Origin: Vicinamibacterales bacterium
Lineage (GTDB): Bacteria > Acidobacteriota > Vicinamibacteria > Vicinamibacterales > CAVVIG01
Reading direction: 5' to 3'
NCBI GenBank assembly: GCA_036004865.1
Contig: DASYQZ010000166.1
Span: forward strand, 10,921 to 74,920
Length of the DNA stretch: 64,000 bases
In this document: one piece after another, positions 3,323-63,581 of the stretch
How the letters are laid out: every line of letters starts with the position of its first letter
Position numbering within the stretch: position 1 is the stretch's first letter
The notes under the pieces: model-generated
Database searches by the model: none
Seen by the model: the letters and a program-made list of their open reading frames with translations, nothing else
What the model was told of the DNA's origin: nothing
Translations under genes and position numbers: made by a program

Positions 3323-4594
3323 GTGGACTCTGTGTCTGCGCAGGGTGCCGGGTGCCGCGTGCTTGGTGCCTCGTGCTCGGTGCTGAGTGCCTGGTGCCGG
3401 GTGCTGGGTACGTGGTGCCTGGTGCCGGGTGCCTCGTGCCTCGTTCTGGCGCAGACGCCGCAGCGCCCCGGCCAGATGCCGACGCTGCCGCTGACGCAGC
3501 TCGACGAGCGCGCGCTCGCCGCCGATCTCGATAACCGCACGTTCACGTTGACGTTCGCGCAGCCGGTGCCGGTCAAGGATCTGCTGCTGCTGCTCGTGCG
3601 CGGCACGAACCTCAGCGTCGTGCCCGATCCGGCGATCGGCGGCTCGTTCATCGGCGAGCTGAAGAACGTCACGGTCCGCCAGGCGCTCGGCTTGATCCTG
3701 ACCCCGCTCGGGCTCGACTACTCGGTCGACGGCAACATCATTCGCGTGTTCAGGCGCGAGCCGAGCACGCGCATCTTCGACGTCAACTACATCGCCTCGG
3801 AGCGCAGCGGCGCGGCAATGATCGGCGGGGTTGGCGCGGCCGGCGGCGACCCGGCGGCGCCCAGCTTCGCCAACGTCTCGACGGCAACGAAGGCCGATCT
3901 CTTCGTCGACCTGACGAGAGGCGTGCAGACGCTGCTCTCCGAGCGCGCGGCATTCAACGTCGATCGCAAAGCCGGACTCCTGCAGGTCACCGATTTTCCC
4001 GAGCGTCTCGACCGGGTCGCGCTGTATCTCGAGACGGTGCACGATCGCGTTCATCGTCAGGTGCAAATCGACGCCCGCGTCGTCGAGGTCGAGCTCAACG
4101 ACGAGAAGGCGCCGTCGCTCGACTGGGCCGGGCTCGCGGCGCAATTGATGGCCGATCAGTCGCCGGCCGAGCGCGCCGCCGCGCGGCCGACGCTCACGGG
4201 CATGCGCGTGATCGACGTGCAGAAGCTCCTCGGTCTGATGGCGGCGCAAGGCAAGCTGCTGGTCATGGCCAGCCCCCGTCTCGTGACGCTGAACAACGAG
4301 CCGGCGATCGTGCGCACCGATGCGATCACCATCAGCGTGACGCCGCAGATCGCGCCCGATTCGGCGGTCATGCTGAGCGTCAGCCCGATCGTGAAGGCGC
4401 CGGTCGTTGCAGAGTCCGACATGCTCGCGCGCGTCGCGGACGGCGAGACGCTCGTCATTCCGGGCTTCACACGCGATCGCGAAGTCCGCGAGCGCCGGAA
4501 CCTGGGAATTTCGGGCGGGTGGTTCGGCCGCGGCACGGTCGTCACGCGCAAGCGCGTCGAGGTCGTGATTCTCCTGACGCCGAAGATTCTGTAG
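3323..4594 (+). CDS. Secretin family protein (MshL/GspD/PilQ-like, reduced)
   Basis: STN/N0-like 'LKNVTVRQALGLIL', N3-like domain, 'RQVQIDARVVEVEL', 'SPRLVTLNNEPA', 'VTPQI', 'DGETLVIPG', 'EVVILLTPKIL'. Start codon uncertain. Confidence 0.85.
   Translation: MDSVSAQGAGCRVLGASCSVLSAWCRVLGTWCLVPGASCLVLAQTPQRPGQMPTLPLTQLDERALAADLDNRTFTLTFAQPVPVKDLLLLLVRGTNLSVVPDPAIGGSFIGELKNVTVRQALGLILTPLGLDYSVDGNIIRVFRREPSTRIFDVNYIASERSGAAMIGGVGAAGGDPAAPSFANVSTATKADLFVDLTRGVQTLLSERAAFNVDRKAGLLQVTDFPERLDRVALYLETVHDRVHRQVQIDARVVEVELNDEKAPSLDWAGLAAQLMADQSPAERAAARPTLTGMRVIDVQKLLGLMAAQGKLLVMASPRLVTLNNEPAIVRTDAITISVTPQIAPDSAVMLSVSPIVKAPVVAESDMLARVADGETLVIPGFTRDREVRERRNLGISGGWFGRGTVVTRKRVEVVILLTPKIL
3344..3448 (+). repeat. 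15 x 7-nt tandem repeat (GGTGCCK consensus) within secretin N-terminus
   Basis: GGTGCCG GGTGCCG CGTGCTT GGTGCCT CGTGCTC GGTGCTG AGTGCCT GGTGCCG …; translates as five 7-aa repeats. Confidence 0.85.
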
Positions 4595-4596
4595 CC

Positions 4597-5550
4597 ATGT
4601 ACGAAAACTATTACGGGTTCGCGGAAAAGCCGTTCAGCCTGACGCCGGATCCGAAGTATCTCTATCGCAGCCAGTCGCACGCCAGCGCGTTCGATCTCCT
4701 GCAATACGCCATCCGGCGGCGCGAAGGATTCGTGGTCGTCACCGGCGACATCGGCACTGGCAAGACGACGCTGTGCCGCGCGCTGCTCGAAGAGATCGAT
4801 CGCACGACGTTCACGGCCCTCGTGCTGAATCCCTTCCTGTCAGAAGAGGATCTGCTCAAGCGGATCCTGCAGGACTTCGGCGTCGTCTCGCGCGACGAGA
4901 TGAAGACGGGACGGCTGGCGACCGTCACCAAGCAGGAGCTGATCGACACGCTCTACGACTTCCTGCTGTCGTTGATTCCGCTCAAGGCGAGCGCCGTGCT
5001 CATCATCGACGAGGCGCAGCATCTGCCGCTGCCGGTGCTCGAACAAATTCGCATCCTGTCGAACCTCGAGACCGACAAAGAGAAGCTGCTCCAGATCATT
5101 CTCGTCGGCCAGTTGAACCTGCAGCCGCTGCTGCGCTCGCCGCACCTGCGCCAGCTCGATCAGCGCGTGTCGATTCGCTATCAGCTCGAGCCGCTCGATC
5201 GCGACACCGTCTCGGCATACATCGCGCATCGTTTGACGATTGCCGGCGGCTCGGCGGCTGTCACGTTCACGCCGAAGGCCATCGACGAGGTGCACCGGCT
5301 GTCGGGCGGCATTCCGCGTCTGATCAATCTGATCTGCGATCGCGCGCTGCTCGCCGGCTATTCGCTGCAGACGAATCGCATCACGGACGAGATGGTCGTC
5401 CACGCTGCCAACAGTTTGGACATGGTGCCGCCGCTGAAACAGCGGCTCAGCCAGCGCGCGTCCCTCGTCACAGCGGCCGCAGTCGTATTGCTGGCGTCGG
5501 CGTTCGCCGTGAGCGCGATGACCTACTTGCTGACGCGATTCGCGCCGTGA
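4597..5550 (+). CDS. ExeA/GspA/MshM-like AAA ATPase
   Basis: 'MYENYYGFAEKPFSLTPDP', Walker A GDIGTGKT, Walker B LIIDEAQ, 'GGIPRLINLICDRALL', C-terminal TM helix. ATG lies 2 nt after the secretin stop. Confidence 0.9.
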   Translation: MYENYYGFAEKPFSLTPDPKYLYRSQSHASAFDLLQYAIRRREGFVVVTGDIGTGKTTLCRALLEEIDRTTFTALVLNPFLSEEDLLKRILQDFGVVSRDEMKTGRLATVTKQELIDTLYDFLLSLIPLKASAVLIIDEAQHLPLPVLEQIRILSNLETDKEKLLQIILVGQLNLQPLLRSPHLRQLDQRVSIRYQLEPLDRDTVSAYIAHRLTIAGGSAAVTFTPKAIDEVHRLSGGIPRLINLICDRALLAGYSLQTNRITDEMVVHAANSLDMVPPLKQRLSQRASLVTAAAVVLLASAFAVSAMTYLLTRFAP

Positions 5551-5557
5551 GATTCTC

Positions 5558-6859
5558 GTGAGCGTGATTCTGGATGCGCTGCGCCGCAACAAGTCGGCGG
5601 AGCCCAAGGAAAAAACAGCAGGCGGACGCACGGCGCGCACCGATGCCGTGCTCGCGACGCTTGGCTATCCGCGTCCGCAGCCGTCGCGCGCCGGCGGACT
5701 GTCGCCCGGCAAGATGCTGGTGTACGGCGGCGCCGCGATGGCCATCGGCTTCGTCGGGTTGTCGGCGCTGATTCTGTTCCTCACACCTTCGTCGCCAAGG
5801 CCGTCGAGTGCGCCGCCGCGTCCCGCGCAAACAGCGCGAGGCAGCGCGCCGCTTCCGTCGCGACCGGCTGCGCCGGACGCGCCCATCATGGCGCCGCGGC
5901 TGAGCACGCCGCCTCAACCGCCACCAGTCGCGCCGCGGACCGCGCCGGCGCCAGCGCCCGCGACGCCGACTCCCACGACACCGGCGCCCGCGGCGCAACC
6001 GCAGTCCGCACGAGCGTCGCAGCCGGCCGCCCCTCAGCCCACGACGCCACCGCAGGCGACTTCGACGCCGCCGCCGGCCGCCGCGCGCACGGCGCCTGTC
6101 GCGCCGCGGCCTCCGGCCGCCGAGCGCACGGCGCCTGTCGCGCCGCGGCCTCCGGCCGCCGAGCCGCGACGCGCCGCGACCGAACCGGCACGGCCGCGTC
6201 CATCGGAGTCCGCGACGCCGGCGCCCCGGCGCGCAGCCGTTCCAGCGCGAGAACCCGTGCCGCCTCCTGCGCCGCCGCCGGCCCCGACGCCGCCGCCTGA
6301 AAATCACTTTGCTCTGGCGCTGTACTACCAGCGCGTCGGCGACTACGACAAAGCGCTCGCGCAGTATCGTCAACTGCTCGAACAGAACGACCTGAGCGCC
6401 GAGGTCCACAACAATCTCGGTCTGCTGTACCAGGATCGCGGGCAGATCGACGAAGGCATCAGACAGTTCGAGCGCGCGCTGGCGATCGATCCGACGTATG
6501 TCAAGGCGCACAACAACCTCGGCGTTGCGCTGATGCGATCGAATCGTCTCGACATGGCCGCCGCCGAGTTTCGCGTCGCGCTCGCCGCCGATTCGCGCAA
6601 CGTCGAGTCGCTCGTGAACCTCGCGCTCATTCAGCGGGCCGGCGGTCATGTCGCCGAGGCGCGCGATCTCCTTCGCCGCGCGCTGGCGATCGACCCGCGG
6701 AGTGCCGGCTCGCACTACAACCTGGCGGTGGTCGCCGACGAAAGCGGCGACACGTCGACGGCCATCGAGCATTACCGCGCGTTTCTGCGGTATGGCGCCG
6801 TCACCAACGGGGATCTGGCCGCGCAAGTTCGTGCGCGGCTCGCCTCGCTGGGCTCCTGA
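5558..6859 (+). CDS. TPR protein with N-terminal TM anchor and Pro-rich linker (MshN-like architecture)
   Basis: 'MSVILDALRR' start typical of MshN/GspB-like proteins, TM helix, Pro/Ala linker, several TPRs ('HNNLG' twice, 'HYNLA'). Confidence 0.8.
   Translation: MSVILDALRRNKSAEPKEKTAGGRTARTDAVLATLGYPRPQPSRAGGLSPGKMLVYGGAAMAIGFVGLSALILFLTPSSPRPSSAPPRPAQTARGSAPLPSRPAAPDAPIMAPRLSTPPQPPPVAPRTAPAPAPATPTPTTPAPAAQPQSARASQPAAPQPTTPPQATSTPPPAAARTAPVAPRPPAAERTAPVAPRPPAAEPRRAATEPARPRPSESATPAPRRAAVPAREPVPPPAPPPAPTPPPENHFALALYYQRVGDYDKALAQYRQLLEQNDLSAEVHNNLGLLYQDRGQIDEGIRQFERALAIDPTYVKAHNNLGVALMRSNRLDMAAAEFRVALAADSRNVESLVNLALIQRAGGHVAEARDLLRRALAIDPRSAGSHYNLAVVADESGDTSTAIEHYRAFLRYGAVTNGDLAAQVRARLASLGS
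6085..6164 (+). repeat. Perfect 39-bp tandem duplication in TPR-protein linker
   Basis: GCGCACGGCGCCTGTCGCGCCGCGGCCTCCGGCCGCCGA x2 (RTAPVAPRPPAAE x2). Confidence 0.85.
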
Positions 6860-6889: not shown

Positions 6890-8850
6890 ATGGCCGACCA
6901 GCAACACGCCGAGATCGACGATCTGCTCCGCGAAGACCGGACGTATTCACCGCCGCCCGAGTTTCAGGCGCGCGCGCACGTTCGCGACGAGAGTCTGTAC
7001 GCGGAGGCGCATCGCGATCCCGAAGGTTTCTGGGCGAAGTTCGCGGGCGAGCTCGAATGGTCGCGCCCGTGGGATCAGGTGCTGGACTGGCAGCCGCCGC
7101 ACGCGAAATGGTTCGTCGGCGGACGGATCAACGTCAGCGTCAACTGCCTGGACCGCCACGTCCGCGGACCGCGCCGCAACAAAGCGGCGCTCATCTGGGA
7201 AGGCGAGCCGGGCGATCGCCGCACGCTGACCTACTTCGACCTGCACCGCCAGGTCTCGAAATTCGCCAACGTCCTGAAGTCGCTCGGCGTGAAGAAGGGC
7301 GATCGCGTCGCGCTATACCTGCCGCTCATCCCCGAGCTGGCGATTGCGATGCTCGCCTGCGCGCGCATCGGCGCCATCCACAGCGTCGTCTTCGGCGGCT
7401 TCAGCGCCGAGTCGCTGCGCGATCGCATCAACGATTCGCAATGCCGTCTGCTCGTCACCGCCGACGGCGGCTACCGGCGCGGGCAGATCGTCGGCCTGAA
7501 AAAAGTCGCCGACGAGGCCGTCGCCGACACGCCGTCGATCGAGCACGTGGTCGTCGTGCAGCGCATCGGCGACAAGATCGCGGCGAACATGCAGAGCGGC
7601 CGCGACCACTGGTACCACGACCTGATGAAGGACGCGCCGTTCAAGTCCGAGCCCGAGCCGATGGATGCCGAGGACATGCTCTACATCCTCTACACGTCGG
7701 GCACGACCGGAAAACCGAAGGGCATCGTGCACACGACCGCGGGATATCTGGTCGGTGTGTACGCAACGACGAAGCTCGTCTTCGATCTCAAAGACGATGA
7801 CGTCTTCTGGTGCACGGCGGACATCGGCTGGGTCACCGGCCACAGCTACGTTGTCTACGGGCCGCTGGCCAACGGCGCGACGGTCCTGATGTACGAGGGC
7901 GCGCCGGACTGGCCGCAGAAAGATCGCTTCTGGTCGTTGATCGAGCAGTACGGCGTGACGGTGTTCTACACCGCGCCGACGGCGATTCGCGCGTTCATGC
8001 GCTGGGGGACCGACTGGCCGTCGAAGCGCGACCTGTCGTCGCTCCGCCTGATCGGATCGGTCGGCGAGCCGATCAATCCGGAAGCGTGGATCTGGTACCA
8101 CCGGCATATCGGCGGCGAGCGTTGTCCGGTCGTCGACACGTGGTGGCAAACCGAGACCGGCGCGATCATGATCACACCGCTGCCGGGCGTCACGACGCTG
8201 AAGCCCGGGTCGGCGACGAAGCCGTTTCCCGGCATCGCGGCGGAGATTCGCAACGAGCGCGGCGACATCATAGAGGTCGGCGGCGGCTTTCTCGCGCTCA
8301 CGCGTCCGTGGCCATCGATGCTGCGCGGCATCTACGGCGATCCCGAGCGCTACGCCCGCCAGTACTGGAACAAGTGGGGCAACGCCGTCTACGTCACCGG
8401 CGACGGCGCGAAGCGCGACCCGACGGCTATTTCTGGCTGCTCGGCCGCGTGGACGACGTGATCAACGTGGCGGGACATCGCATCGGCACGATGGAAGTCG
8501 AGAGCGCCCTCGTCGATCATCCGAGCGTCGCCGAAGCGGCCGTCGTCGGCCGCGCGCACGACATCAAAGGTCAGGCGATTGCGGCGTTCGTCACGTTGAA
8601 GGAAGGCGCGCCGGCCGACGCGCACATCGCCGACGCGCTGAAGGATCACGTGGTGAAGAAAATCGGCGCGATCGCGCGACCCGACGACATCCTGTTCGCG
8701 GCCGATCTCCCGAAGACGCGATCGGGGAAGATCATGCGGCGGCTGCTGCGCGACATCGCCGAAGGCAAGGCGCTCGGCGACACCACAACGCTCGCCGATC
8801 CGAACGTGGTCGCGCGGCTGAAGTCGGAGTACGAGGAGCGGGAGGTGTAG
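6890..8850 (+). pseudogene. acs: Acetate--CoA ligase with a single-base frameshift near 8419-8422 (pseudogene or sequence error)
   Basis: Frame 1 gives [11 protein letters not shown], '[11 protein letters not shown]', 'TGDGAKRDP'. The continuation '[20 protein letters not shown]…[11 protein letters not shown]' is in another frame, ending at 8850. Confidence 0.85.
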
Positions 8851-9990: not shown

Positions 9991-12303
9991 GTGGCCACGC
10001 GCGTCGGGATTGAGCTGTCGCCGGCGGCCTGCCGCGTCATCGAGATCGAGGGCGGACTGCCGTGGGTTCGGCGGGCACCCGAGACGACAGTTCTGTCATT
10101 CGATGTGCTGCCGCCGGCGGGACCCGAGACGAGGGCGAAGCTCGAGACGCTGCGGAAACGGTCGGCCGCGGTTGTCGTCTGGGGCGTGCCGAGCGATCAC
10201 CGCCAGGTGATCGTGACCAACCGATCGTACGAAGCGATGCGGCGCGAGGCGCTGGTGGCGCTGACGGGCGCCGGCATCGAGACGCGCGGCGTGCTCGCGG
10301 ACATCGCGCCGGCCGGCGACGGAAAAGATCGCTCCCCGCGGCGGCCCGTGGTCGTCGCGCTGGCCGCGGCCGCTCCGATGACCGCGGCGCTCGAGCCGCT
10401 CACGAACGCCGGCATCCATGTCCGGTCTGTTCTGACGCCGGCCGCCGCGCTCACGTCATTGGCGCGCACACGGTGCGAGTTCGCCGTGCCGGGGTCGATC
10501 GAAGCGTACGTGGCGCTCGACAAAACCGCGACGTGTATCGCGCTCGTTCGGGACGGCGCGTTGATTACCGCACGCGAGCTGTCGTGGGGTTACGTCGACG
10601 ACGTCGGCCACACCGAGCCGCGGCGAGTCGACGACATCACGAGGCGGCTCGCCGACGAGCTGTCGGAATTCTTCGGGGCCATTGGCGCGTCGCCGTCGGC
10701 GGTCGGTCAGATTTGCGTGTGCGGTCCGCTGCCCGAGCTGCGCAGCATGACCGCACGGCTCACGCAGCAACTCGACGTCGAAGTCGAGCCACTGGATTCG
10801 CAGTACGCCATCGATTCCGAGGAGCTGTTCGAGCACTCCGTTGACTTTCGCGAGCGCAGCGCCGAGATGCGTCTCGCATGGGCGGCGGCCACCGACTGGC
10901 CGCCGGCGATCAATCTGCTGCGCGCGCGCAAGCGTCAGTCGACGAAGACGGCGCTCGCGCGCGCCGCGCTGGTCGCGGGCGCAGTCGCAGGATTGGCAAT
11001 CGGCTGGCAGGTGCAGCAGAGTGCGTGGTGGCGATCGCGCGCGGCGGTGCTGATTGCGCGCGTGACGCCGCGCGCCAGGCCGGCCGCGCCTGCCACGCGC
11101 GCGCCGCAACCTACGGTCTCGCCGAAGCCGCCGCCGTCGCCGGGGTCGCCGGGGCCGAGCCCGGCAACGACGGCGACGAAAACGGTTCCGCCCGCGACGC
11201 CGCCCTCAGCAGCCGCGACGAAACCGCCGACGCCGGTGTCACCGCCGGTCGTGGCGACGAAACCGCCGACGCCGGCAACGACAGCGCCGACAACGCCTCC
11301 CGTGTCGGCCACGAAACCGCTGCCACCGCCGGTGACGACGATGAAACCGTCGCCGCCAGTGTCACCGCCGATCGCGGCAACGAAGACGCCAGTCCCGACA
11401 ACGCCGGCGCCGACAACGCCGCCGGTGGCAGCCGCGAAGCCGTCTGCACCACCGGCGACGACGACGCAACCGGCGGCGCCTGTGTCCCCGCCGATCGCGG
11501 CGACGAAGACACAGACGCAAACGCCGCCCTCGCCATCCGTGGCGGCCACGAAACCGGCGCAGCCGCCGGTGACGACGACGAAACCATCGGCGCCAGTCTC
11601 ACCGCCAATCGCGGCGACGAAGACGCCAGCGCCGGCAACGCCGCCTGTGACGGCCGCGAAGCCGTCTCCACCACCGGTGACGACGACGAAACCGACGCCG
11701 CCCGTCTCACCGCCGATCGCGGCGACGAAACCAACGGCGCCCGTCTCACCGCCGATCGCCGCGACGAAACCGGCGCCGCCATCACTACCGCCGTCGACGC
11801 CGCGATCATCTCCGGCTGTACCGCCGGGCAGAGAAGTCGCGACGCCGCCGCCCACGAGCGCACCACCGGCGGCACGTCGAGAGCCGGAACGTGCGCCGAC
11901 CACGCGTACTGAACCGAAGCCGACGCCGACAGTGCTGGCGCCGGCTGCGACGCCGCCTCGCGCCGCGCCGAGCGTTGCGCCGCCGCCGCCCGCGGCGCCA
12001 AGCGCCGCACCGCCGGTTCGACCTCAGCCGCCGGTCGAACCCTCGCCGCCGGCTCGACGAGACGAGCCCGCACCTGAGCCGGCGCCGCGACGCGTTGCAC
12101 CCGCGCGGCCGCCGGAAGTCGCGACGCCGTTCGACGCTTCTCTCGCGACGATTCTGTATTCGCCGGATCGAAAGCTCGCGATCATCGACGGCCGGATCGT
12201 TGGGGTAGGTGACGAAGTACGCGGCGCTCGCGTGACCGACATCACGCCAAACGCTGTGTTTCTTCGAGATGCCCAAGGTAGGCTGCGTCGGCTCAGTCGT
12301 TGA
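9991..12303 (+). CDS. PilM-like/PilN-N-terminus fusion with Pro/Thr stalk and C-terminal MshK/GspB-like domain
   Basis: 'RVGIELSPAACRVIE' PilM-like start, 'INLL'+basic+TM segment, about 350 aa Pro/Thr repeats, C-terminal 'ILYSPDRKLAIIDGRIVGVGDEVRGARVTDITPNAV'. Confidence 0.65.
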   Translation: MATRVGIELSPAACRVIEIEGGLPWVRRAPETTVLSFDVLPPAGPETRAKLETLRKRSAAVVVWGVPSDHRQVIVTNRSYEAMRREALVALTGAGIETRGVLADIAPAGDGKDRSPRRPVVVALAAAAPMTAALEPLTNAGIHVRSVLTPAAALTSLARTRCEFAVPGSIEAYVALDKTATCIALVRDGALITARELSWGYVDDVGHTEPRRVDDITRRLADELSEFFGAIGASPSAVGQICVCGPLPELRSMTARLTQQLDVEVEPLDSQYAIDSEELFEHSVDFRERSAEMRLAWAAATDWPPAINLLRARKRQSTKTALARAALVAGAVAGLAIGWQVQQSAWWRSRAAVLIARVTPRARPAAPATRAPQPTVSPKPPPSPGSPGPSPATTATKTVPPATPPSAAATKPPTPVSPPVVATKPPTPATTAPTTPPVSATKPLPPPVTTMKPSPPVSPPIAATKTPVPTTPAPTTPPVAAAKPSAPPATTTQPAAPVSPPIAATKTQTQTPPSPSVAATKPAQPPVTTTKPSAPVSPPIAATKTPAPATPPVTAAKPSPPPVTTTKPTPPVSPPIAATKPTAPVSPPIAATKPAPPSLPPSTPRSSPAVPPGREVATPPPTSAPPAARREPERAPTTRTEPKPTPTVLAPAATPPRAAPSVAPPPPAAPSAAPPVRPQPPVEPSPPARRDEPAPEPAPRRVAPARPPEVATPFDASLATILYSPDRKLAIIDGRIVGVGDEVRGARVTDITPNAVFLRDAQGRLRRLSR
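11070..12120 (+). repeat. Coding Pro/Thr-rich repeat tract (PVSPPIAATK)
   Basis: Five PVSPPIAATK copies plus variants (PVSPPVVATK, PPVTTTKP). Boundaries approximate. Confidence 0.8.
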
Positions 12304-12453: not shown

Positions 12454-14487
<2,034 letters not shown>

Positions 14488-15303
14488 GTGGCGCTCAAGA
14501 ACTATTACGAGCTGCTCGAGCTCCCGCCGACGGCGACGGCAGACGAAATCAAGCGAGCGTTCCGCGCGCAAATCGCCCGCTACCATCCCGATAAAGTCCA
14601 GCACCTCGGCAAGGAATTCCAGGACATGGCGGCCGACCGCGCCGCCGAGCTGACCGAGGCGTACCGAATCCTCTCCGACGAAGGGCGGCGTGCGGAGTAC
14701 GACCGCGCATCGGCGGCTGCGGGGACCGACACCGCCGGGAGCGCGGCCGCGAGCGCGGCGCCGCGGCCCGATGCCGGCGCCGGGCACGCCGCTCCGCCTC
14801 CACCGCCCCCACCGCCGGACACCGAGCCTCACGTCTCGAAGGGGCCGCAGTTCTCGCAGGAGCGCGCGACGCGCGATCAGTTCGTCCGGAAGGCGCTGAT
14901 CGGTCGGCTGCGGCAGGCGCTCGACGTCATCGGCGGCTACGACGAGTCGGAGGCGCGCAGCTTCGATCTGGCCTGGACACCCAAGAGAAAGATGTTCGCG
15001 AGCGGCAAAGGACCGCGTCTGCTGGCGCGGTTCGTGTCGCGCGTCGACGGCGAAGCGATCGCGGATGCGTGGATGCAGGCGATGAAGTGGGCCGGGAGCG
15101 AGGAAGTCTCCGTGCTGCTCATCGGCTCGACGATGGCGCCGGCGGGCGAGCTGGCAAAGGCGATCGCGGAGCAGCGGAGGAAATCGCGCGGCGCCAGGGC
15201 GACGCTGATTCCGGTCGACGCGAACAGTTGGGATGCGCACCTGCCGACCGATGCTCCGCCAATCGCAAAGACGCTGCTCTCACGCGTCAAGAGCGGCGCA
15301 TAA
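14488..15303 (+). CDS. J-domain (DnaJ-like) protein with unknown C-terminal alpha/beta domain
   Basis: 'NYYELLEL…EIKRAFR…YHPDK…EAYRILSD…RAEYD'. Starts immediately after the ATPase stop. Confidence 0.85.
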
Positions 15304-32758: not shown

Positions 32759-34147
32759 TCAGCGAGCATTTCTGATTTTCGCGAAGATGCGCTCGTACTT
32801 GCCGAGCACGACGTCCCAGCGGTAGCTCCTGCGGACGTATTCGCGGCCGTTCCTGCCGAGCGCCGCGCGCAGCCGTTCGTCGCCGACGAGCAGCTTCAGA
32901 CATTCCACGAACTCGTCGCGATCGGCGTAGTACAGGCCGCCGTTGCTGCGAACGCAGTGCTCGACCAGCACCGCGCTGCGCGCGTTGACGAGAATCGGCG
33001 TGCCGACGGCGAGCGATTCGAGCGCGAGGAGCGACAGGCTCTCGTAAGGCGACGGACAGACGACGACCGTGGCGGCTTCGAGCGCCTGCAGCCGCTCGCG
33101 ATCGGAAAGCAGTCCCGCGAAGCGGATGAACGGTTCTTCCGGCAGCGACATCAGCTTGACGCCCATCAGCGCGAGCGTCGCATCGCCGCCTTCCTTTACG
33201 TACTCGCTGAAATACTGAATCAGCTCCTCGCAGCCTTTTCCGGGATCGATGCGCCCGCCGTAGAGGACCATCGGACCGTACATCCGGTGGCGGCGCCGGA
33301 AGACCGCGCCGCGGGCGAGGAGGTGCGACGGGAATGCGCCCGACTCCGGGCGCGGGCCATCACCGCGCGGGCCGTCATCGGCGCGCGCCGCCGTCGCGCC
33401 GGTGGCGCTTCGGCGAGCCTGGCCGTCGCTCGCTTCTTCATCGGGCGAGCGAAGGCCGGAGGCCTCAGCCGCGCGATCGCCCTCCGTCGCGGATTCTTCT
33501 TCCACGATCGCCGGCATTCGCGGATACGGCTGCGACGGTGGAATCTCGACGCCCACGCCGATCACGTCTTCGAGCAGGGGCCGTTCGGAGAACTGCTGAT
33601 GGACGAAGTCGCGCTCGCTTTCCGTCAGGTAACACAGCGCGGCCGGCTTCCGGAACACGTCCGTGAAGATTTCGAGGCGAATCGCCGGTTCGTCGTGCGC
33701 CGTCGGGACGAGCACGCTGCGAGCCGGCACGACCTCGAGGCCGGCGACCGTCGGCGCGTAGAGGTAGGTGAAAAACACCACGACGTCGTACTGCTGCTGG
33801 TGCTTGCGCAGGTAATCGATGAGGCCCGGCGTCCATGGCCCCTGCTGCTTCAGCCATTCCATCTCGTCGTCGCGCGTGTGCGGGTTGTTGTAGATCCAGT
33901 CGGAGTACTTGTTGAACGCCTCGATGTCGCGCGTGCGCGCGTTCGCGAAGCGCCGCACGGTGACACCGCGGACTCGATCCGTGCCCTCGGGATAGTCGTT
34001 CTTCCACGTGATGTAGTCCTGCGCGCAAGTCGTCAGGACCTCGACGTCGTGCGTGGCGGCGAGGCGCTCGGCGACGAGCCGGCACAAGTGCTCGGAGCCG
34101 CCGAGCACTTCGGTGCCGTATCGCTGAACGATTAAACCTAGTTTCAT
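32759..34147 (-). CDS. Glycosyltransferase family 4 (GT-B)
   Basis: 'VQRYGTEVLGGSE', 'YGGRIDPGKG', 'PSPYESLSLLALES' (EX7E). Confidence 0.9.
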   Translation of the reverse strand: MKLGLIVQRYGTEVLGGSEHLCRLVAERLAATHDVEVLTTCAQDYITWKNDYPEGTDRVRGVTVRRFANARTRDIEAFNKYSDWIYNNPHTRDDEMEWLKQQGPWTPGLIDYLRKHQQQYDVVVFFTYLYAPTVAGLEVVPARSVLVPTAHDEPAIRLEIFTDVFRKPAALCYLTESERDFVHQQFSERPLLEDVIGVGVEIPPSQPYPRMPAIVEEESATEGDRAAEASGLRSPDEEASDGQARRSATGATAARADDGPRGDGPRPESGAFPSHLLARGAVFRRRHRMYGPMVLYGGRIDPGKGCEELIQYFSEYVKEGGDATLALMGVKLMSLPEEPFIRFAGLLSDRERLQALEAATVVVCPSPYESLSLLALESLAVGTPILVNARSAVLVEHCVRSNGGLYYADRDEFVECLKLLVGDERLRAALGRNGREYVRRSYRWDVVLGKYERIFAKIRNAR

Positions 34148-34151
34148 TTTT

Positions 34152-34330
34152 ACTCCGGGGGCCCATACCCCCGGACGCGCTCCGCGGGGACCCCTACGCC
34201 CCGCACGTTGTTCACTCCGGGGGCCCCCGCCCCCCGGACGCGCTCCGCGGGGACCCCTACGCCCCGCACGTTGTTCACTCCGGGGGCCGCTGCCCCCCGG
34301 ACGCGCTCCGCGGGGACCCCTACGCCCCGC
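34152..34330. repeat. Three tandem 62-63-bp hairpin-containing units
   Basis: Units start at 34152, 34214, 34277: ACTCCGGGGGC-[variable loop]-CCCCCGGACGCGCTCCGCGGGGACCCCTACGCCCCGC. Confidence 0.9.
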
Positions 34331-35393
34331 TCCGCACCGTGTCGATTAAGGTGGTCAGCTCGCGTGTGATGCGCGCGTCGCCGAAATCAGCGAGCCGGCG
34401 GCGCTGGCCGGCCAGCACGCGGTCACGCAGCTCGTCGTCGAACGCGAGCGCGCCGAGCAGTTCCGCGGCGTATTCGAAATCCTTGGGCGCAAACTGGACG
34501 CCGGCGCCCCCGAGCGTGTCCGGCACTGCCGCCGCGGCATACGCGAGGACCGGTACATCGGCTGCCATCGCTTCGATGAGCGGGACGCAAAAGCCTTCGT
34601 GCTCGCTCAAGGAGATGTACACAGCCGCCTGTCGATAGTAGACGGCGAGCTCTTCGTCGGGAACGGGACCGGTGAACACAAAGCGGTCATTGAGCAGCCG
34701 GTACTCGGCCATCAGCGCGCGAATCATCGAATAATAGCGCGGCACCACGTCATACCGGCCGACGAAGATGAACCGGTAGTAGGCGTCGATGTACCGCTTG
34801 TACACTTCGGCCAGCTTGATGACGTCCTCGATCTTCTTGTTCGGCGCGATGCGGCCCACGAACAGAAAGTTCACGAGGCCGTCGTCGAGAATTTCCTGGA
34901 GCGACGGCCGGGGCGCCGCCTGCGTGATGCGGGCGGTGTTCACCGCGATCGGAAAGACGGCTGTCCGCGCGAAGCCGAGCGATTCCAACTCCTGCCGGTT
35001 GTACTCCGAGTCGCCGAGCGCGAGGTCGACGCGCCCGGGCAGCGTGGCGAGCTCCTGACGGCCCAGCGTCGCCAGCCGGAACAGCGCCGGATCGAAGGGC
35101 GCGAAGTATTCCGCCGGGGTGACGTTGTGGTACTGCAGCACGCGACCGGCGTCGAGCGACGCGAATGCCGCCGTCATCGGCGAGGGCAGCGCGTAGTGGA
35201 AGATGGTGATGTCGCCTCGCCGTGCCGCGGCGTGGGTGAACGGGCGCACGTCGCGTTTCAGCTCGTTGTCGATCGTCAGGGCGTACAGATCGGAGTCATG
35301 CCCCAGGCCGCGGAGCAAGTCCCGCACGCGCCGCGCGCTGTCGCCGATCGCGTCTCCCTTGTGCGCCGCCGGCACCCACTGATTGATGAGCAT
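34320..35393 (-). CDS. Glycosyltransferase family 4
   Basis: 'GDAIG', 'YHNVTP', 'FVGRIAPNK', 'SEHEGFCVPLIEAM'. Confidence 0.9.
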   Translation of the reverse strand: MLINQWVPAAHKGDAIGDSARRVRDLLRGLGHDSDLYALTIDNELKRDVRPFTHAAARRGDITIFHYALPSPMTAAFASLDAGRVLQYHNVTPAEYFAPFDPALFRLATLGRQELATLPGRVDLALGDSEYNRQELESLGFARTAVFPIAVNTARITQAAPRPSLQEILDDGLVNFLFVGRIAPNKKIEDVIKLAEVYKRYIDAYYRFIFVGRYDVVPRYYSMIRALMAEYRLLNDRFVFTGPVPDEELAVYYRQAAVYISLSEHEGFCVPLIEAMAADVPVLAYAAAAVPDTLGGAGVQFAPKDFEYAAELLGALAFDDELRDRVLAGQRRRLADFGDARITRELTTLIDTVRSGA

Positions 35394-35401
35394 CCCAGAC
35401 T

Positions 35402-36598
35402 TCAGACTTGCTCGGACTCCGGCAACGCCTTGTAGATCGCCGGCCGGTACAAGCGGAGCTCTTCCAGCTCCTGAGCCGCGTCGAACTGGTTCCAGAAATC
35501 GAAGGTGACGTGCGGCGCCGGCGCGCGCGGACACGCGAGGATCTGGTCGACGAGCCGCAGCAGCGTGCCGGGAAAATCTTTCGCGCGCAGCCGATCGACC
35601 GCCGCAAACTGCCCGTCGACGATCGCGTCCTGCAGCGTTGCATTCGAAATGATGGCGTCCATCAACGACGCGACGTGCATCGGATCCTTGTCGTCGAACA
35701 ACACGCCCGCGCCGTCCATCGTCGACGGCACCGCCGTCGCGGCGTAGGCCAGCACCGGCACCTGCTCGTAAAACGCCTCGACGATGGGGACGCAGAAGCC
35801 TTCGTGCTCGCTCGCGCAGAGGAAGAGATCGGCGACTTCGTAAAAAGCGACGAGCTCTTCGTCCGTCACGTGGCCGGCGAAGTGAACATGTTCGACGCCG
35901 AGCGCGGCCACCAACTGATGGAGCGAAGCGAGATAGCGCTCGAATCCGCTCTGCGCACCGACGATCAGCAGCCGCGACCGCGGATTGAAAAACGTCTGAT
36001 ACGCGTGGAAGAAGCGGATGACGTCCTCGATCTTCTTGTTGGCGATCACCCGGCCGACGAACATCACGTTGGTCCAGTCGTCGTCGAAGTCGCGCACGAC
36101 CATCCGGTTCGGACAGCGATCGAGATGCGAGAAGTCGGGCACGACCGGCAGCACAGCCGTCCGCGGAAAGCCGAGTGCTTCGAGGTCCTGCCGGTTGAAT
36201 TCCGAGTCGCCCATCGCGAGGTCGCACCGATCGGCGTAGGCCTGGAGCTCGCGGCGTCCTCGAAAGCACTGGCGCGCGAGCGTCCGGTGCACGCCGACGA
36301 AGTATTCCGGCGGCGTGATGTTGTGATAGATGAGCGCCATGCGATCGGGCAGCGCGAAGGCCGTTCGAGACGCCTTCGAGCCGAGCGAGAAGTGATGCAG
36401 CAGCAGATTGTCGCGGCGGCTGAAGTCGACCAGCTCGCGATAATCGCGCGTCAGCGGCTCGAGGCGGTAATCGGCGGTCTCGACGAAAATTTCGGATTCA
36501 TATCCGGCGCCTCTGAGCACACGCTGAATCCCGAGCACCTCGTGGCCGATCGCGTCGCCGTACCCCAGCGTCGCGAGGACCTGGTGAATCCTGATCAA
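35402..36598 (-). CDS. Glycosyltransferase family 4
   Basis: TTG start overlapping the upstream TGA, GGAGG RBS; 'GDAIG', 'YHNITP', 'FVGRVIANK', 'SEHEGFCVPIVEA'. Confidence 0.88.
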   Translation of the reverse strand: MIRIHQVLATLGYGDAIGHEVLGIQRVLRGAGYESEIFVETADYRLEPLTRDYRELVDFSRRDNLLLHHFSLGSKASRTAFALPDRMALIYHNITPPEYFVGVHRTLARQCFRGRRELQAYADRCDLAMGDSEFNRQDLEALGFPRTAVLPVVPDFSHLDRCPNRMVVRDFDDDWTNVMFVGRVIANKKIEDVIRFFHAYQTFFNPRSRLLIVGAQSGFERYLASLHQLVAALGVEHVHFAGHVTDEELVAFYEVADLFLCASEHEGFCVPIVEAFYEQVPVLAYAATAVPSTMDGAGVLFDDKDPMHVASLMDAIISNATLQDAIVDGQFAAVDRLRAKDFPGTLLRLVDQILACPRAPAPHVTFDFWNQFDAAQELEELRLYRPAIYKALPESEQV

Positions 36599-38022
36599 GC
36601 CCGCCTCCGGCCCCGCCCTGAGCTTGTCGAAGGGCCCGGCCCTGAGCGTGCCGAAGGGCCCCGCGCTGAGCTCGAGCTCGTCGGGCCCTGCCCCGAGCTC
36701 GTCGACGGACCTCCCGGTTCGGCAGGGACCGGCCTTGTTCCGGCGAGCGCCGGCCCGCCCGGTAGCTTCCCGAGCACGTCCTCGGCAGCCGGCAAATCCT
36801 GGCGTCGTCTGTCGAACCAGCCAGGCAGCGGATCCACCGGACGCGGCGGCGGGTCGCGTTTCAACCGGTCGAACATGTCGAGGTACTTCCGTTCGATCAC
36901 GGGCCAGTCGTAATGCTCGCGGAAGAACTGGCGGCCGTTGCGGCCGAGCGCGCCCATCAGCCACCGGTTCTGCTCGATCGCATGGAGCGTCTCGTGGAAC
37001 TCTGCGTAGCTCTCGTAGTAGAGGCCGGCGTTGCTGCGGATGCACTGCCCCTTCAGTACGTCGCACTTGCCGTTGGCGAGCACCGGCTTGCCGAGCGCCC
37101 ACGCTTCGAGCGTCACCATCGACAAGCTCTCGAAGTACGACGGCATGATCAGCAGATCCGCGGCGGCCATCGCGTCGAATTTGTCGGCGTCGTCCACGAA
37201 TCCGAGATGGCGAATGCGGAGATGATCCGGAATCGGCAGCAGCTCCTTGCCGATGAGGACGAGCGTCAGCTTGCCGGACGGATCGCGCAGGTAACCCTTG
37301 AAGAACTCGAACAGTTCCTTGCAGCCCTTGTTCTGATCGATCCGCCCGACGTAGACCGCGAACGGTCCGCGGACGTTGTACTTCTGACGGAAGCGGACAG
37401 GCTGAGGATTCTGCGGCACTTCCGATCCGATGCCGACGACGACGCCGGGGACGTTCTGGTTGGCGGAGACCGCGTTGATCATCGCGCGTTCTTCGGGCGA
37501 GTTGTACATGAGCGCGCGAACGGACCGGAACAGCGGAGGAAAAATCGAGAGCCCGATCGCCGCATCCCGCTCGGCCGTCGGCACCAGAATCGCGCGCGCG
37601 GCGGCCGCGCGCGCGCCGTGGTACGCGTGGTAGTACCGGTAGCTGAAAAACAGACAGAAGTCGTACTCGGCGGCGTGGTTGCCGACGTAGTCCACGAGGG
37701 CCGGACAGGTCGGGCCCTCGGCATCCAGCCAGTCCAGCTCGTCGCCGAGCGAATGCCGATGCTCGAACACGCGATGCGATCGGCGGCCGAAGACGCGCTC
37801 GTCGCGCTCGCGTTTGACGCGGAACCGGCGTACCGGAACGCCGTTCACCTGCTCGACGCCCGCCTCGAGCTCGTTCCGCCATGTCACGTAGTCGGTGGCG
37901 CAGGTGGTCAGCACCTCCACCTGCCCATGTCTGGCGAGATGCTCGGCGATGTAGCGCGCGTGCAACTCCGCGCCACCGTTGATCGCCTGGCCGTACCGCT
38001 GTACGACGACCGCGATCTTCAC
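36595..38022 (-). CDS. Glycosyltransferase family 4 with repeat-derived C-terminal tail
   Basis: 'VQRYGQAINGGAE', 'YVGRIDQNKG', 'PSYFESLSMVTLEA'. Confidence 0.9.
   Translation of the reverse strand: MKIAVVVQRYGQAINGGAELHARYIAEHLARHGQVEVLTTCATDYVTWRNELEAGVEQVNGVPVRRFRVKRERDERVFGRRSHRVFEHRHSLGDELDWLDAEGPTCPALVDYVGNHAAEYDFCLFFSYRYYHAYHGARAAAARAILVPTAERDAAIGLSIFPPLFRSVRALMYNSPEERAMINAVSANQNVPGVVVGIGSEVPQNPQPVRFRQKYNVRGPFAVYVGRIDQNKGCKELFEFFKGYLRDPSGKLTLVLIGKELLPIPDHLRIRHLGFVDDADKFDAMAAADLLIMPSYFESLSMVTLEAWALGKPVLANGKCDVLKGQCIRSNAGLYYESYAEFHETLHAIEQNRWLMGALGRNGRQFFREHYDWPVIERKYLDMFDRLKRDPPPRPVDPLPGWFDRRRQDLPAAEDVLGKLPGGPALAGTRPVPAEPGGPSTSSGQGPTSSSSARGPSARSGPGPSTSSGRGRRRA
36615..36708. repeat. Cluster of four REP-like GCCCTGAGCTTGTCGAAGGG units
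   Basis: GCCCTGAGCTTGTCGAAGGG (36615), GCCCTGAGCGTGCCGAAGGG (36639), degenerate copies at 36663 and 36690. Confidence 0.85.
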
Positions 38023-39020
38023 TGCGTGTCGGGGTCGGTCTTGGACGGACCTTGCCCTGTGTCTCCGTCGGACGGATGAGCGACCGGCTCGGACGGATGC
38101 GCGGCGGCGCCGCTGAACTGCGCGAGATCTTCGGTCGCGGTGCCGTTCGTGTCCGGGCTTTCGTCGGCGGTGTCGCGATCGTCGGATCCGGATTCGTCGG
38201 GCGCGCCGGGCTGCGGCTGCGCGGTCGAGGGCTGGCCGCCCATGATCGCCGCCGCCGGGCCGCCGCTGCGCCGGCCGCGGCGTCTGCGACGGCGCCGGCT
38301 TCGCTGACCGGGACCTTCCTGAGTCTGCGCTCCCGCCGTCGGCCCTTGCGGCGGCGGTGGTGCCGGCGCCGGTCGCGCTGCAGGAATCGAAACCGGTGTC
38401 GGCGCCGGACGTGGAGATACCGGCGCCTCACGCTCGTCCGCCTTGTAGACGACGACGCTTTCCAGCGCGCGCGCGCGGCGTTCGTTGAATTCCAGGCGGC
38501 TCGCCAGCGACTCGGCGCGCATCTTCAGGTTCTTTGCTTCGATGCCGAGCCTGGTCGTTTCGACCACGAGGTTGTGAATGAGCTCGTACGTCAACTGATC
38601 GCTGGCGCGCCGTGCTGCTTCACGGCGCGCTTCCCGTTCCGCGTACATCGTGTTCAGCCGCGCTTGAATGTGCAGCGCCTGAACGAGCTTGTTCGGATTG
38701 AAGAACAGCTTCAACAGCGGGTTGAGCAGCTTGCGGATGAAGCGCAGCAGTCCGCGATGCGTTTCGTAGAGCGTCCCTTCCTCGAACTCGTAGTTGGGCA
38801 GCTCCGGCGGCTCGTACGCTGGTTGGACTTTTCGATACTGTTCGAGCAGATCGGAGCGCACGCCTTTCGGATCGAGGAACTTCTCGAGCTTCACGGCGGC
38901 GAGGTCGCGAATCTGCTGTTCGGTGTAGTCGACGCCGCGTTTCTCACGGATGCGGGCGCGGATCTGCTCCATGATCTGCTCGACGTTCACCGAATCGGAG
39001 CGGACGTTGAAATCGGGCAT
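38019..39020 (-). CDS. Hypothetical coiled-coil protein with Arg-rich and acidic disordered tail
   Basis: 'VNVEQIMEQIRARIREK', amphipathic 'GLLRFIRKLLNPLLK', heptad region, RRRRRRRGRR; ATGA-coupled to the next GT gene. Confidence 0.75.
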   Translation of the reverse strand: MPDFNVRSDSVNVEQIMEQIRARIREKRGVDYTEQQIRDLAAVKLEKFLDPKGVRSDLLEQYRKVQPAYEPPELPNYEFEEGTLYETHRGLLRFIRKLLNPLLKLFFNPNKLVQALHIQARLNTMYAEREARREAARRASDQLTYELIHNLVVETTRLGIEAKNLKMRAESLASRLEFNERRARALESVVVYKADEREAPVSPRPAPTPVSIPAARPAPAPPPPQGPTAGAQTQEGPGQRSRRRRRRRGRRSGGPAAAIMGGQPSTAQPQPGAPDESGSDDRDTADESPDTNGTATEDLAQFSGAAAHPSEPVAHPSDGDTGQGPSKTDPDTQ

Positions 39021-39046
39021 AAACGCTGTCAGCTCTCGGCTCTCAG

Positions 39047-39991
39047 CTATCTGGGCCAGTAGATAATCACCGCGACCGCGAGCGCCCACAGCGCCACGCA
39101 GACGAGCAGCGGGCGATCGCCGAGCAGCAAGTCGGAGGGGTTGCCGCCGCCCTCGCGCCGGTGCACGAGGTACAGATAGCGAAAGATGCCATACAACGGA
39201 AAGGGAATGGTCAGCTCGAGCCAGGGCGTGCCGAATTTCGCCTGAGTCTCGGGACTGATCGTGTAGAACACGTACGAAATCAGCGTCGATGCCGTGGCGA
39301 CTGCGATCATCTGGTCGAGCAGATACGGGCTGTACTCGCCGAGGATCCGCCGATGGCTTGCCGCGTTGCTCGCGAGCAGTGTGAGCTCGTGCCGGCGTTT
39401 GTTGAGGACGATGAACAGCGCCAGCAGAATCGTGCAGACGAGCAACCAGTGGCTCGATTCGACGTCGACGGCGACGGCGCCCGCCACGGCGCGCAGCACG
39501 AACCCGATCGCCACCGTCAGCACGTCGACGATCACGATGTGCTTCAACACGCTCGAATAGAGCGCCTGAAGTCCGAGGTACGAGGCGGCGACGATCGCGA
39601 ATCCGCGGCCAAGCGCGAGCGATCCCGCGATGCCGGCCGCGCCGATGACGATGGCCGACACCGTGGCGGCGTGAACGCTGAGCGCCCCCGAGGCAATAGG
39701 CCGCGTCGCCTTGAGCGGATGCCGCCGATCGCTCTCGCGATCCAGGATGTCGTTCACGAGATAGACGGCGCCGGACAACGCGCAGAAGATCACGAACGCG
39801 GCAAGCGCGCGGAGAACGGCCCATGACTCGAACAACCGCAAGCCGAACAGCAGTCCGTGGAAGACCATGAGATTCTTGGTCCATTGGACCGGCCGCAGCG
39901 CGTTGATGAGGTTGAGAGCAAAGGGCCTTCCCGACACTCCGCTGACCGGAGTATCGGGAACCGCCACAGAGGAAGAAGTACTGCGCGCCAT
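39047..39991 (-). CDS. UbiA family decaprenyl-phosphate phosphoribosyltransferase-like protein
   Basis: 'RPVQWTKNL', 'YLVNDILDRESDRRHPLK..RPIASG', 'KRRHEL', 'YGIFRYLY', multiple TM. Confidence 0.85.
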   Translation of the reverse strand: MARSTSSSVAVPDTPVSGVSGRPFALNLINALRPVQWTKNLMVFHGLLFGLRLFESWAVLRALAAFVIFCALSGAVYLVNDILDRESDRRHPLKATRPIASGALSVHAATVSAIVIGAAGIAGSLALGRGFAIVAASYLGLQALYSSVLKHIVIVDVLTVAIGFVLRAVAGAVAVDVESSHWLLVCTILLALFIVLNKRRHELTLLASNAASHRRILGEYSPYLLDQMIAVATASTLISYVFYTISPETQAKFGTPWLELTIPFPLYGIFRYLYLVHRREGGGNPSDLLLGDRPLLVCVALWALAVAVIIYWPR

Positions 39992-62900: not shown

Positions 62901-63581
62901 AGCGGCGAGTCGGTCGGGACGTATCCGATCAGCGCCACACTGAGCCCGGCGAGCGCGCTGGCGAACTACGACGTCACCTACGGAGCGGCGTCGTTCGCGG
63001 TGACGCCCGCCGCGTTGACCGTTCGTGCGATCGACCAGACCAAGCTGTATGGAAGCCCGGACCAACCGCTCACGTACGAAGTGAACGGCCTTCAGTTCAA
63101 CGACACCGCCGTGACGACGCTGACTGGCTCACTGGTTCGGGACGCCGGTGAGAGTGTTGGCCGATACGCGATTCGTCAGGGCACGCTGGCGCCGAATGGC
63201 AACTACATCGTCAATTTCACGAACGGAACGCTGACGATCAGCTACAACACGTGTCTGCTCTATGACCCGATGAAAGCCGTGAAGAGCGGCGCGACGATTC
63301 CGATCAAGATTCAGCTGTGCTCGGCGAGCGCCGCGAATGCCTCGTCGCCCGCGATCGTCGTGTCGGCGGACGAACTGACGCTCGTCTCACTCTCGACGAC
63401 CGCGATTCTGGAGGATGCCGGAAACGCGAATCCCGACGACAATTTCCGCTTCGAGTACGGGCTTGGACCGGGGTACATCTTCAATCTGAAGACCACCGGT
63501 CTTGGCGCGGGTACGTATCACCTGCGCTTCATGGCGACAAACGATCCGGAGCCGCACATCGTGTCGTTCCAGGTGCGATAG
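59991..63581 (+). CDS. Large secreted/surface protein (Kelch-like blades, Ig-like Big_3 x3, MBG-like repeats)
   Basis: AGGAGA RBS; 'LADGRVLIAGG' blades; 'SSANPS.FGQ…G.H.ITA.Y.GD' repeats; 'LTV.A.D.TK.YG' repeats. Confidence 0.85.
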   Translation: MLSAVSPAFTRGGRIARAFLTFSSHRHAVRIAGYAIVVASAAAAAGGPIALDAMQASEPARQGATATALADGRVLIAGGDAQGSAEINDPSTGQTSPLDARMSTPRAYHGAVLLADGNVLIVGGYAAGTQSIEASAEIFVTGEGIFTKTSGPLQSARVQPTLTRRTDGVVVVSGGAGSGLIEFYDPATQTFGPDPAAASVVTDRGDYAPGETVTFIGRRWFPGETVRITLHEVQALHSDRELFATANDAGEFVNTDFAPEPHHLGVTFDVTAAGATSGRQALWTFTDGAPPSTSYTISEGTGTIFTGGSPTSILSGCDDCTVHVPLPFAVTLYDRTYTSAKVSSNGNVQFSSDSTAFGNTALPTNAFGATILPYWDDLDTRGAGYAVQTQTTGSSPDRVFHVWWHVKHVAGATPADFELLVYESLAQFDVVYAGGGAGTATIGIQRSGGGPFTMYASSPGASIAKLAGKKLSFVGNGAGTSTSVTSSANPSLFGQSATVTAAVVSAGSPVTSGTVTFTEGSRTLAGPTTLDASGRATFSAAGLSAGTHVITATFNGNSTQTSSSGTVTQTVNSASTTTAVSSSANPSVFGRLLTVRANVSVNPPGNGTATGSVQFQADGVNIGVPMTLFGGSATTSISMLSEGTHTISAIYEGDRNFNASSGTLSQIVNRASSVTTVAVSENPTVFGQPVTFTATVAAAQPGSGIPSGTVQFKDGEADLGPAASLSGGTATFTTSNLSGGSHAITAAYAGDSGFVGSNGAIDHVVNKATPSLSATGGTFVYDGQPHAATATATGVRDESLRPVTLTYSGAGESQTAPIHAGTYTVVASYDGNGNYTAMSARTTLTIMPARLTVKADDRTKVYGSSNPPFTATIVGYVADENASSLDGTLSFTTPATERSAVGGYAITPSGLTSIDYAIEFVNGTLTVTKAAAIVTPHGASKVYGSPDPALTGTLSGFVAGDGVTAMYHRISGESVGTYPISATLSPASALANYDVTYGAASFAVTPAALTVRAIDQTKLYGSPDQPLTYEVNGLQFNDTAVTTLTGSLVRDAGESVGRYAIRQGTLAPNGNYIVNFTNGTLTISYNTCLLYDPMKAVKSGATIPIKIQLCSASAANASSPAIVVSADELTLVSLSTTAILEDAGNANPDDNFRFEYGLGPGYIFNLKTTGLGAGTYHLRFMATNDPEPHIVSFQVR

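Follow-up and report, generated by a model that had tools for sequence, protein, structure and literature searches.

Deletion of the central gate from a conserved secretin of soil-type Acidobacteria

Damage to the central gate opens a breach in the outer membrane, which is why the gate has been regarded as a fixed feature of secretins. Published work calls the central gate conserved and makes the top gate alone optional (PMC10550240), and pIV is made leaky by gate point mutations as well as by a 10-residue gate deletion (bioRxiv 10.1101/2021.07.20.453082). The stretch of DNA analysed here, 64,000 nucleotides from the genome of a Vicinamibacterales bacterium and hereafter called the window, carries a secretin gene from which this gate is cleanly deleted, as it is in related genes of the same family, and the gene has been kept.

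Domain layout and deleted segments

The gene at 3323..4594 (+ strand) encodes an MshL-type secretin of 423 aa with a GTG start and matches to PF00263 and PF07660. Its PF00263 score (32.7 bits, cut-off 27.5) indicates that the C-terminal secretin domain is present, and its top NCBIfam model is TIGR02519 (MshL), at 86 bits and below the 250 cut-off. The protein consists of a signal peptide, an N0/STN domain, an N3 domain and a gateless secretin domain, with the C-terminal tail absent. The likely Sec signal peptide (3323..3451, +) ends before a conserved Ala-Gln in alignment A1, at an inferred cleavage site, and the N0/STN domain (3536..3760, +) is the likely docking site for an HR domain. A beta-hairpin insertion of 37 aa in N3 (3785..3895, +) occupies the position of the BfpB N3 barrel and falls in the predicted subunit interface, while the secretin (C) domain (4058..4591, +) retains its barrel strands. 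An AlphaFold2 model built from 117 sequences (pLDDT 75.2) contains N0, N3 and the secretin domain, and both the model and structural alignments place the ring-building N3 domain before the barrel. Structure searches with this model returned secretins, with BfpB first in Foldseek (E 1.8e-14) and second in VIA.

We also observed a short-period DNA repeat at window positions 3345-3445 that is translated in frame within the signal peptide, which it lengthens. The length of this repeat differs among close homologues, and similar repeats, likewise translated, occur on contig C63.

Gates were placed by the hinge residues of f1 pIV, G267/G297 and D321/N335 (bioRxiv 10.1101/2021.07.20.453082), which we verified on the pIV sequence, and their lengths were counted from hinge to hinge. 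By this measure the Gate 1 remnant (4319..4324, +) has 2 residues, with both pivot glycines lost, against a range of 28-33 elsewhere: 28 in E. coli K-12 GspD, 31 in pIV, and 33 in both the window genome's GspD and the gated orthologues. The Gate 2 remnant (4394..4405, +) has 4 residues against 15-19, comprising 15 in pIV, 16 in GspD and 19 in gated orthologues. A central gate formed by Gate 1 between its pivot glycines and buttressed by Gate 2 is thus missing from the window secretin. The first-pass annotation had noticed that only a few residues separate conserved strands in two peptides; both lie, with the reduced loop that it also quoted, in the 3' part of the + strand ORF 3323-4594. Hairpins of normal length, which would have spoken against that reading, did not appear on structural comparison either, as short turns link the strands flanking the deleted gates in the AlphaFold2 model.

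The same annotation had also read a shortened P-x-L-x-x-I-P loop as part of the gate. The shortening is real, but the segment is the amphipathic helical loop (AHL), which has been tied to outer-membrane insertion and not to the gate (PMC6155069, PMC6140923, bioRxiv 10.1101/2020.03.03.975896). In the window secretin this loop (4496..4528, +) has lost its first half, leaving an interval of 45 residues where an intact AHL has 50. Its Trp-Phe remains and, like the lip strands of the secretin, is highly conserved.

Two other secretin-like proteins of the window genome deserve mention. One, at G000:C173:8797-9432 on the - strand (locus L002), is a protein of about 190 aa that consists of a likely signal peptide and a secretin-like domain (PF00263, 31.6 bits) alone; it has no N domains, lies downstream of an apparent ECF sigma factor/anti-sigma pair, and represents a second kind of minimal secretin-like protein. 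The other, at G000:C43:8873-10726, is a gated GspD-like secretin of canonical type whose N-terminus is extended by a long segment; it stands alone between a LolA-like gene and murA (neighbours named by inspection).

Conservation, selection and graded reduction

A homologue search with the window secretin gave 1703 matches among 7995 scored candidates, the best 120 of which were taken further and yielded the 117 rows of alignment A2, four query-identical copies being left out. In these rows from the best 120 of 1703 matches, the Gate 1 interval is 17 residues in 117/117, the Gate 2 interval is 33 in 113 rows and 32 in 4, and the AHL interval is 45 in 114 and 46 in 3. The AHL Trp is invariant across the same set (117/117) and the Phe nearly so (114/117). 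Orthologues therefore share the deletions, a check that the first-pass annotation had proposed, and the window genome is not unique in this respect. One 86%-identical protein among the matches listed comes from an Acidobacteria genome bin, and the Atlas clusters of homologues are mostly Acidobacteriota. The secretin is present in 48/118 genomes of the window's family and in 92/401 sampled genomes of the order.

The gateless secretins are under purifying selection. Estimates by the Nei-Gojobori method (custom script) gave dN/dS of 0.15-0.33 for gateless pairs (n=10, pooled 0.20), including 0.18 between the window genome and its closest relative, compared with a pooled 0.19 for gated, pilus-bearing pairs (n=6) and 0.30 for reduced pairs of family f10 (n=6). 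Relative to MshM, the C-domain rate was 2.3 in gateless pairs, 1.45 in gated pairs and 4.7 in family f10, which points to modest relaxation on top of that selection. Because the deletions are shared by all aligned close homologues and dN/dS is about 0.2, the gene is neither an artefact nor a pseudogene: identical intervals in homologues rule out an assembly error or private deletion, and dN/dS rules out a pseudogene in the window's family. The proposal of an ungated minimal secretin, and not a decaying one-off, holds up on the same grounds, as does the earlier expectation of a dN/dS below 1.

Decay could also be slow, with the C-domain eroding since the pilus was lost and the gene persisting for its N0-N3 part, or because it stabilises MshM and MshN, while heading to loss. 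The patchy distribution across the family and order would fit such a course, as would the higher dN/dS in f10, a graded erosion that proceeds down to loss of outer-barrel segments in G436, G454 and G108, and the finding that 11/113 copies extracted from loci are broken or frameshifted, though possibly through assembly errors. However, dN/dS in the window's family equals that of the intact system (0.20 vs 0.19), the C-domain is conserved about as well as N3, many genera share the same indel lengths, and the AHL, though remodelled, contains invariant residues, so we regard slow decay as rather improbable.

After the 11 broken or frameshifted copies and 1 unalignable copy were dropped, 101 of the 113 orthologues could be measured, and they form a graded series. 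A full AHL interval with long gates was found in 31, an altered AHL with a Gate 1 interval >28 in 26, and both AHL and Gate 1 cut in 44, while a short Gate 1 with a full AHL was found in 0 of the 101. Some members of the window's family have Gate 1 intervals of 22-37 with variable sequence, which may be a remnant or a re-expansion. A profile search extended the comparison to 150 representatives, 96 with all anchors; Gate 1 is short in 35 of them, and 3/35 (P0250, P0175 and P0229) have a full AHL, so the gate can be lost while the AHL stays intact. In P0250 the Gate 1 interval is 17 residues, as in the window secretin; this protein comes from one 1.4 kb contig and is one small cluster among 58 mostly full-length relatives.

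On the phylogenies, gate shortening has arisen more than once. On a quick tree of 97 rows built from the secretin N-part and MshM with gate columns excluded, the short gate changed state 7-8 times and the AHL 3 times. In a tree of 44 rows that was built more carefully, and from which two long rows had been omitted, a single clade of short-gate rows was rejected (p-AU 1.8e-5), whereas a single clade of AHL-cut rows was not clearly rejected (p-AU 0.055), so the AHL cut may be a single event.

The conserved lip strands and the few full AHLs bear directly on whether the gateless secretin is a constitutively open outer-membrane pore. Under this explanation the half AHL would still insert, the wide channel would pass large molecules such as polysaccharide, and MshM and MshN would act as assembly factors; the protein, with its ATPase, TPR and HR tethers, would then be a filament-less offshoot of the type IV filament systems that several Acidobacteria lineages have repurposed as a permanently open, multi-nanometre channel, and it would be the first secretin from nature to lack a central gate. 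In favour of this, the barrel and lip strands persist and the Trp is invariant, secretins have been reported as slime nozzles (PMC12475490), and truncated mitochondrial GspD still forms stable pores (PMC8134430). If any of these proteins forms a truly open pore, the three short-gated representatives with an intact AHL are the foremost candidates. Set against this, the leakiness of pIV gate mutants (bioRxiv 10.1101/2021.07.20.453082) implies that an opening of several nm should be costly, the combination of short gate and full AHL never occurs among the 101 genome orthologues, its best case (P0250) is sporadic among mostly full-length relatives, and polysaccharide genes are not part of the conserved locus. 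We consider an open pore unlikely, but it is the main rival to the explanation developed below, because the Trp-Phe and lip strands are (nearly) invariant and a few gateless proteins do have a full AHL.

Lost pilus genes and retained partners

The window gene order is secretin, ExeA/MshM-like ATPase, TPR/MshN-like gene, acs, a GGDEF gene, a gene for a 770-aa PilM-like protein and a PilB-type ATPase, and it recurs in other genomes across the order. The cognate filament genes are missing from this locus. Many fully gated orthologues lie instead in a larger MSHA-like cluster with an ABC transporter, secretin, MshM, MshN and pilins (one to many), together with PilMN, PilO-like, PilP-like, ATPase and PilC genes. 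Another Acidobacteria lineage (one gp5 record) likewise combines an ATPase, PilC, pilins, MshM and MshN with a long-gated secretin, which makes the complete state the likely ancestral one.

We searched for the cognate PilC in 80 of the 101 orthologue genomes, picked mainly for completeness. It was found in 18/80 (57-68% identity besides the query), all 18 with a fully gated secretin, whereas the 62/80 without it comprise 51 with a cut AHL or gate and 11 that are still fully gated. No cognate MshG/PilC was found in the window genome (74% complete) or among the matches of the 51 reduced carriers, where the sole PilC-like match (36% identity) lies on another contig of G256. Pilin profile A3, built partly from the same genomes that were searched, found no pilin in the window genome at that completeness, and nothing in reduced carriers beyond three weak partial matches and an array in G256 that stands separately; with these exceptions and one copy in G366, it agrees with the PilC table. 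On the tree, pilus presence changes 2 times and provides 1 independent pair, so the link between pilus and gate has no statistical power and the PilC/gate table overstates the evidence. Reduced carriers own other pilus and secretion systems, as seen in the three such relatives examined, and each of 42 genomes tested has 3-8 PF00263 matches, so other secretins are available for those systems.

Among the MSHA-like Acidobacteria clusters, those at L155, L156, L158, L151 and L154 (f8 and others) carry a Gld-like ABC transporter immediately upstream of the secretin. Their pilins form arrays of as many as ~16 related members, have an uncommon N-terminal motif and are mostly missed by Pfam. The pilin array of G282 includes a PEP-CTERM protein.

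Two partners are retained with the secretin. The MshM/ExeA-like AAA ATPase (4597..5550, +) has a C-terminal hydrophobic segment and is co-retained with the secretin: among 46 family genomes, an orthologue of at least 77% identity was present in 23/23 secretin carriers and 0/23 non-carriers. A domain scan found no SPOR or peptidoglycan-binding domain in the window MshM, and SPOR occurred in 2/3 of the relatives scanned. The MshN-like protein (5558..6859, +) combines a conserved N-terminal motif, a hydrophobic segment, a Pro-rich linker and a TPR domain; this TPR gene comes next after the secretin-MshM pair in nearly all sufficiently long loci, and also adjoins fully gated secretins. Gate deletion occurs in many soil-type Acidobacteria in which the secretin is still conserved together with two partner proteins.

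A third candidate partner is the PilM-like protein (9991..12303, +), in which a hydrophobic segment and a Pro-rich linker lead to an HR-like domain at 12109-12300. In intact clusters the HR-like domain belongs to a separate PilP-like gene, and in reduced loci a single gene carries both it and the PilM-like domain; this gene likely arose when the intact cluster's PilMN and PilP genes became joined. The domain is modelled with a pLDDT of 92, and the structures that it matches best are HR domains from GspC, GspB and PilP (TM 0.76, rmsd 2.0, E 0.028), with no match at E 0.001 in the structure search and, in an alignment search of PDB by sequence, a best hit of only E 0.19 to Legionella GspC. HR domains of GspB and GspC bind secretin N0 (PMC9239104). 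The HR-like domain was found in 15/23 carriers (8/23 not found) and 3/23 non-carriers.

The PilB/MshE-type ATPase (12454..14487, +) has an MshEN c-di-GMP motif and 39% identity to the cluster's own ATPase. Its co-retention is weak (14/23 carriers vs 5/23 non-carriers), and we rejected it as the module's dedicated motor. Where found, this ATPase is highly conserved (77-93%); in the window region 12454-15303 it has a C-terminal double zinc ribbon and is directly followed by a DnaJ-domain gene, with the GGDEF gene near. The acetyl-CoA synthetase gene at window 6890-8850 is frameshifted near 8420, with its C-terminus in another frame; since relatives encode it as one frame of ~650 aa, the frameshift may be an assembly error. 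Elsewhere in the window we noted a run of adjacent genes, four for group 1 glycosyltransferases and one of the UbiA family (32762-39868), and a large MBG/Ig-repeat surface protein (60150-63578).

A candidate periplasmic ring and its relation to known systems

Structure prediction suggests that the gateless secretin can still assemble. Three copies of N3 plus the secretin domain gave a homotrimer score of 0.55 against 0.00 for the best control; the pass mark was reached by 20/30 solved pairs and 1/23 single chains in a calibration set that this job does not resemble. The runs agreed in at least 89% of contacts with pLDDT of at least 73. The score supports ring formation, with the reservation that the pass may reflect likeness to solved secretins. 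In the predicted interface, subunits meet at the N3 hairpin and at the strands on either side of the deleted gates, with the hairpin packing on inner-barrel strands at the sites where the gates were cut.

This packing would fit another possibility, namely that the pore inserts and is sealed otherwise, whether by loops of the N3 hairpin, by the TPR domain of MshN or by gated paralogue subunits in a mixed ring; the first-pass annotation, too, had named a plug and a hetero-oligomer beside an open pore. The hairpin lies where BfpB has its N3 barrel, its counterpart (PMC12531336), a TPR gene follows the pair almost throughout, and other secretins exist in every genome tested. However, the N3 insertion is shorter where the gate is short (37 aa in the window, median 31 in short-gate proteins, 68 in pilus-bearing orthologues), which is the opposite of compensation and speaks against a longer N3 loop standing in for the gate; MshN also accompanies gates that are complete; the remaining secretins are only very remotely related, since phmmer with the window secretin missed the GspD of its own genome; and the predicted homo-oligomer is supported without a partner. 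A pore sealed in this way seems to us very improbable.

We tentatively favour, while holding it short of probable, a different explanation in which an MSHA-like pilus secretin has been kept as a filament-less, envelope-spanning periplasmic anchor ring rather than a full outer-membrane pore. This option of a ring that has ceased to open a full outer-membrane pore goes beyond the first-pass annotation. It arises from the context that best accounts for the gate loss, in which cognate pilins, PilC, PilO and ATPase are absent and the AHL is cut in lineages that are still long-gated. The order of events would have been loss of the pilus genes, then shortening of the AHL and C-terminal tail, then erosion of the gates in several lineages; with no filament to pass, the membrane-facing parts of the secretin would have been released first. 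Subunits would be exported by Sec, form a pre-pore-like ring by contacts of N3 and the barrel strands, and touch the outer membrane through the leftover Trp-Phe. On its lower side, MshM, MshN and the PilM::HR fusion may dock on N0 and keep the ring in place, much as GspD is held by GspA/GspB, making it a periplasmic hub tied by these partners to the inner membrane and cell wall. Such a ring would not breach the outer membrane and would have nothing to seal, so the gate would be dispensable.

In the anchor-ring explanation the protein would work like a secretin ring on a GspAB-type scaffold, without coinciding with any known system. Vibrio MSHA has the same order of secretin, ExeA-like ATPase and TPR protein in MshL/MshM/MshN (Table 1, PMC4624765), and the window secretin resembles Vibrio MshL in its best model, TIGR02519, and its N0-N3-secretin layout, but it falls short of that model (86 vs 250 bits), is gateless and has half an AHL, and MshA-, MshG- and cognate MshE-like genes were not found. 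The genes reported as mandatory for the MSH pilus are mshA, mshE and mshG together with mshL and mshM (PMC6668835). Because the secretin has neither the gate nor the intact AHL of its class and the locus has neither the PilC nor the pilins of MSH pili, we class it as a secretin-derived variant that is a member of neither. The type IVb secretin BfpB (PDB 9U5S) shares the N0-N3-secretin layout, the N3 beta-hairpin and the absence of an S domain, but is a lipoprotein whose central gate is sealed and which serves a pilus, whereas the window secretin has no gate or lipobox. Likeness to GspA/GspB (ExeA/ExeB) lies in the ExeA-like ATPase beside the secretin, SPOR in some relatives and, by analogy, a membrane-anchored HR-like domain of the N0-binding kind (PMC9239104); GspAB serve a working T2SS, while the window HR domain sits on a PilM-like fusion and is not linked to a secretion platform.

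Reduced secretins are known in other forms. The leaky gate mutants of pIV, XcpD and GspD carry changes at the same hinges, but these are laboratory point mutants or small deletions (bioRxiv 10.1101/2021.07.20.453082, PMC10550240), and Klebsiella-type secretins lack only the optional top gate, whereas the window secretin lacks the central one (PMC10550240). Mitochondrial GspD/GspDL is, like the window protein, a naturally reduced secretin in a minimal system, but it is the reverse case, having lost the N domains and kept the AHL, with gates not mentioned in the main text (PMC8134430). In the accessible portions of the literature searched, which lie largely outside subscription journals, we found no natural secretin without a central gate, nor any mention of an Acidobacteria secretin locus of the window type.

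Should the ring insert, its minimal wide pore would be attractive as a nanopore scaffold. For the biology of the family, the locus bears on MshM and MshN, two proteins with an unclear role in MSHA pili: Vibrio can make its pilus without mshM and mshN (PMC4624765), and exactly these genes are kept in the reduced loci, where there is no pilus. The orthologues also form a natural series, from complete pilus and gated secretin, through pilus-less but gated, AHL cut and gate cut, to both cut. This series makes the roles of the gate and AHL in assembly, insertion and leakage testable, along with the idea that a pre-pore may be a stable end state.
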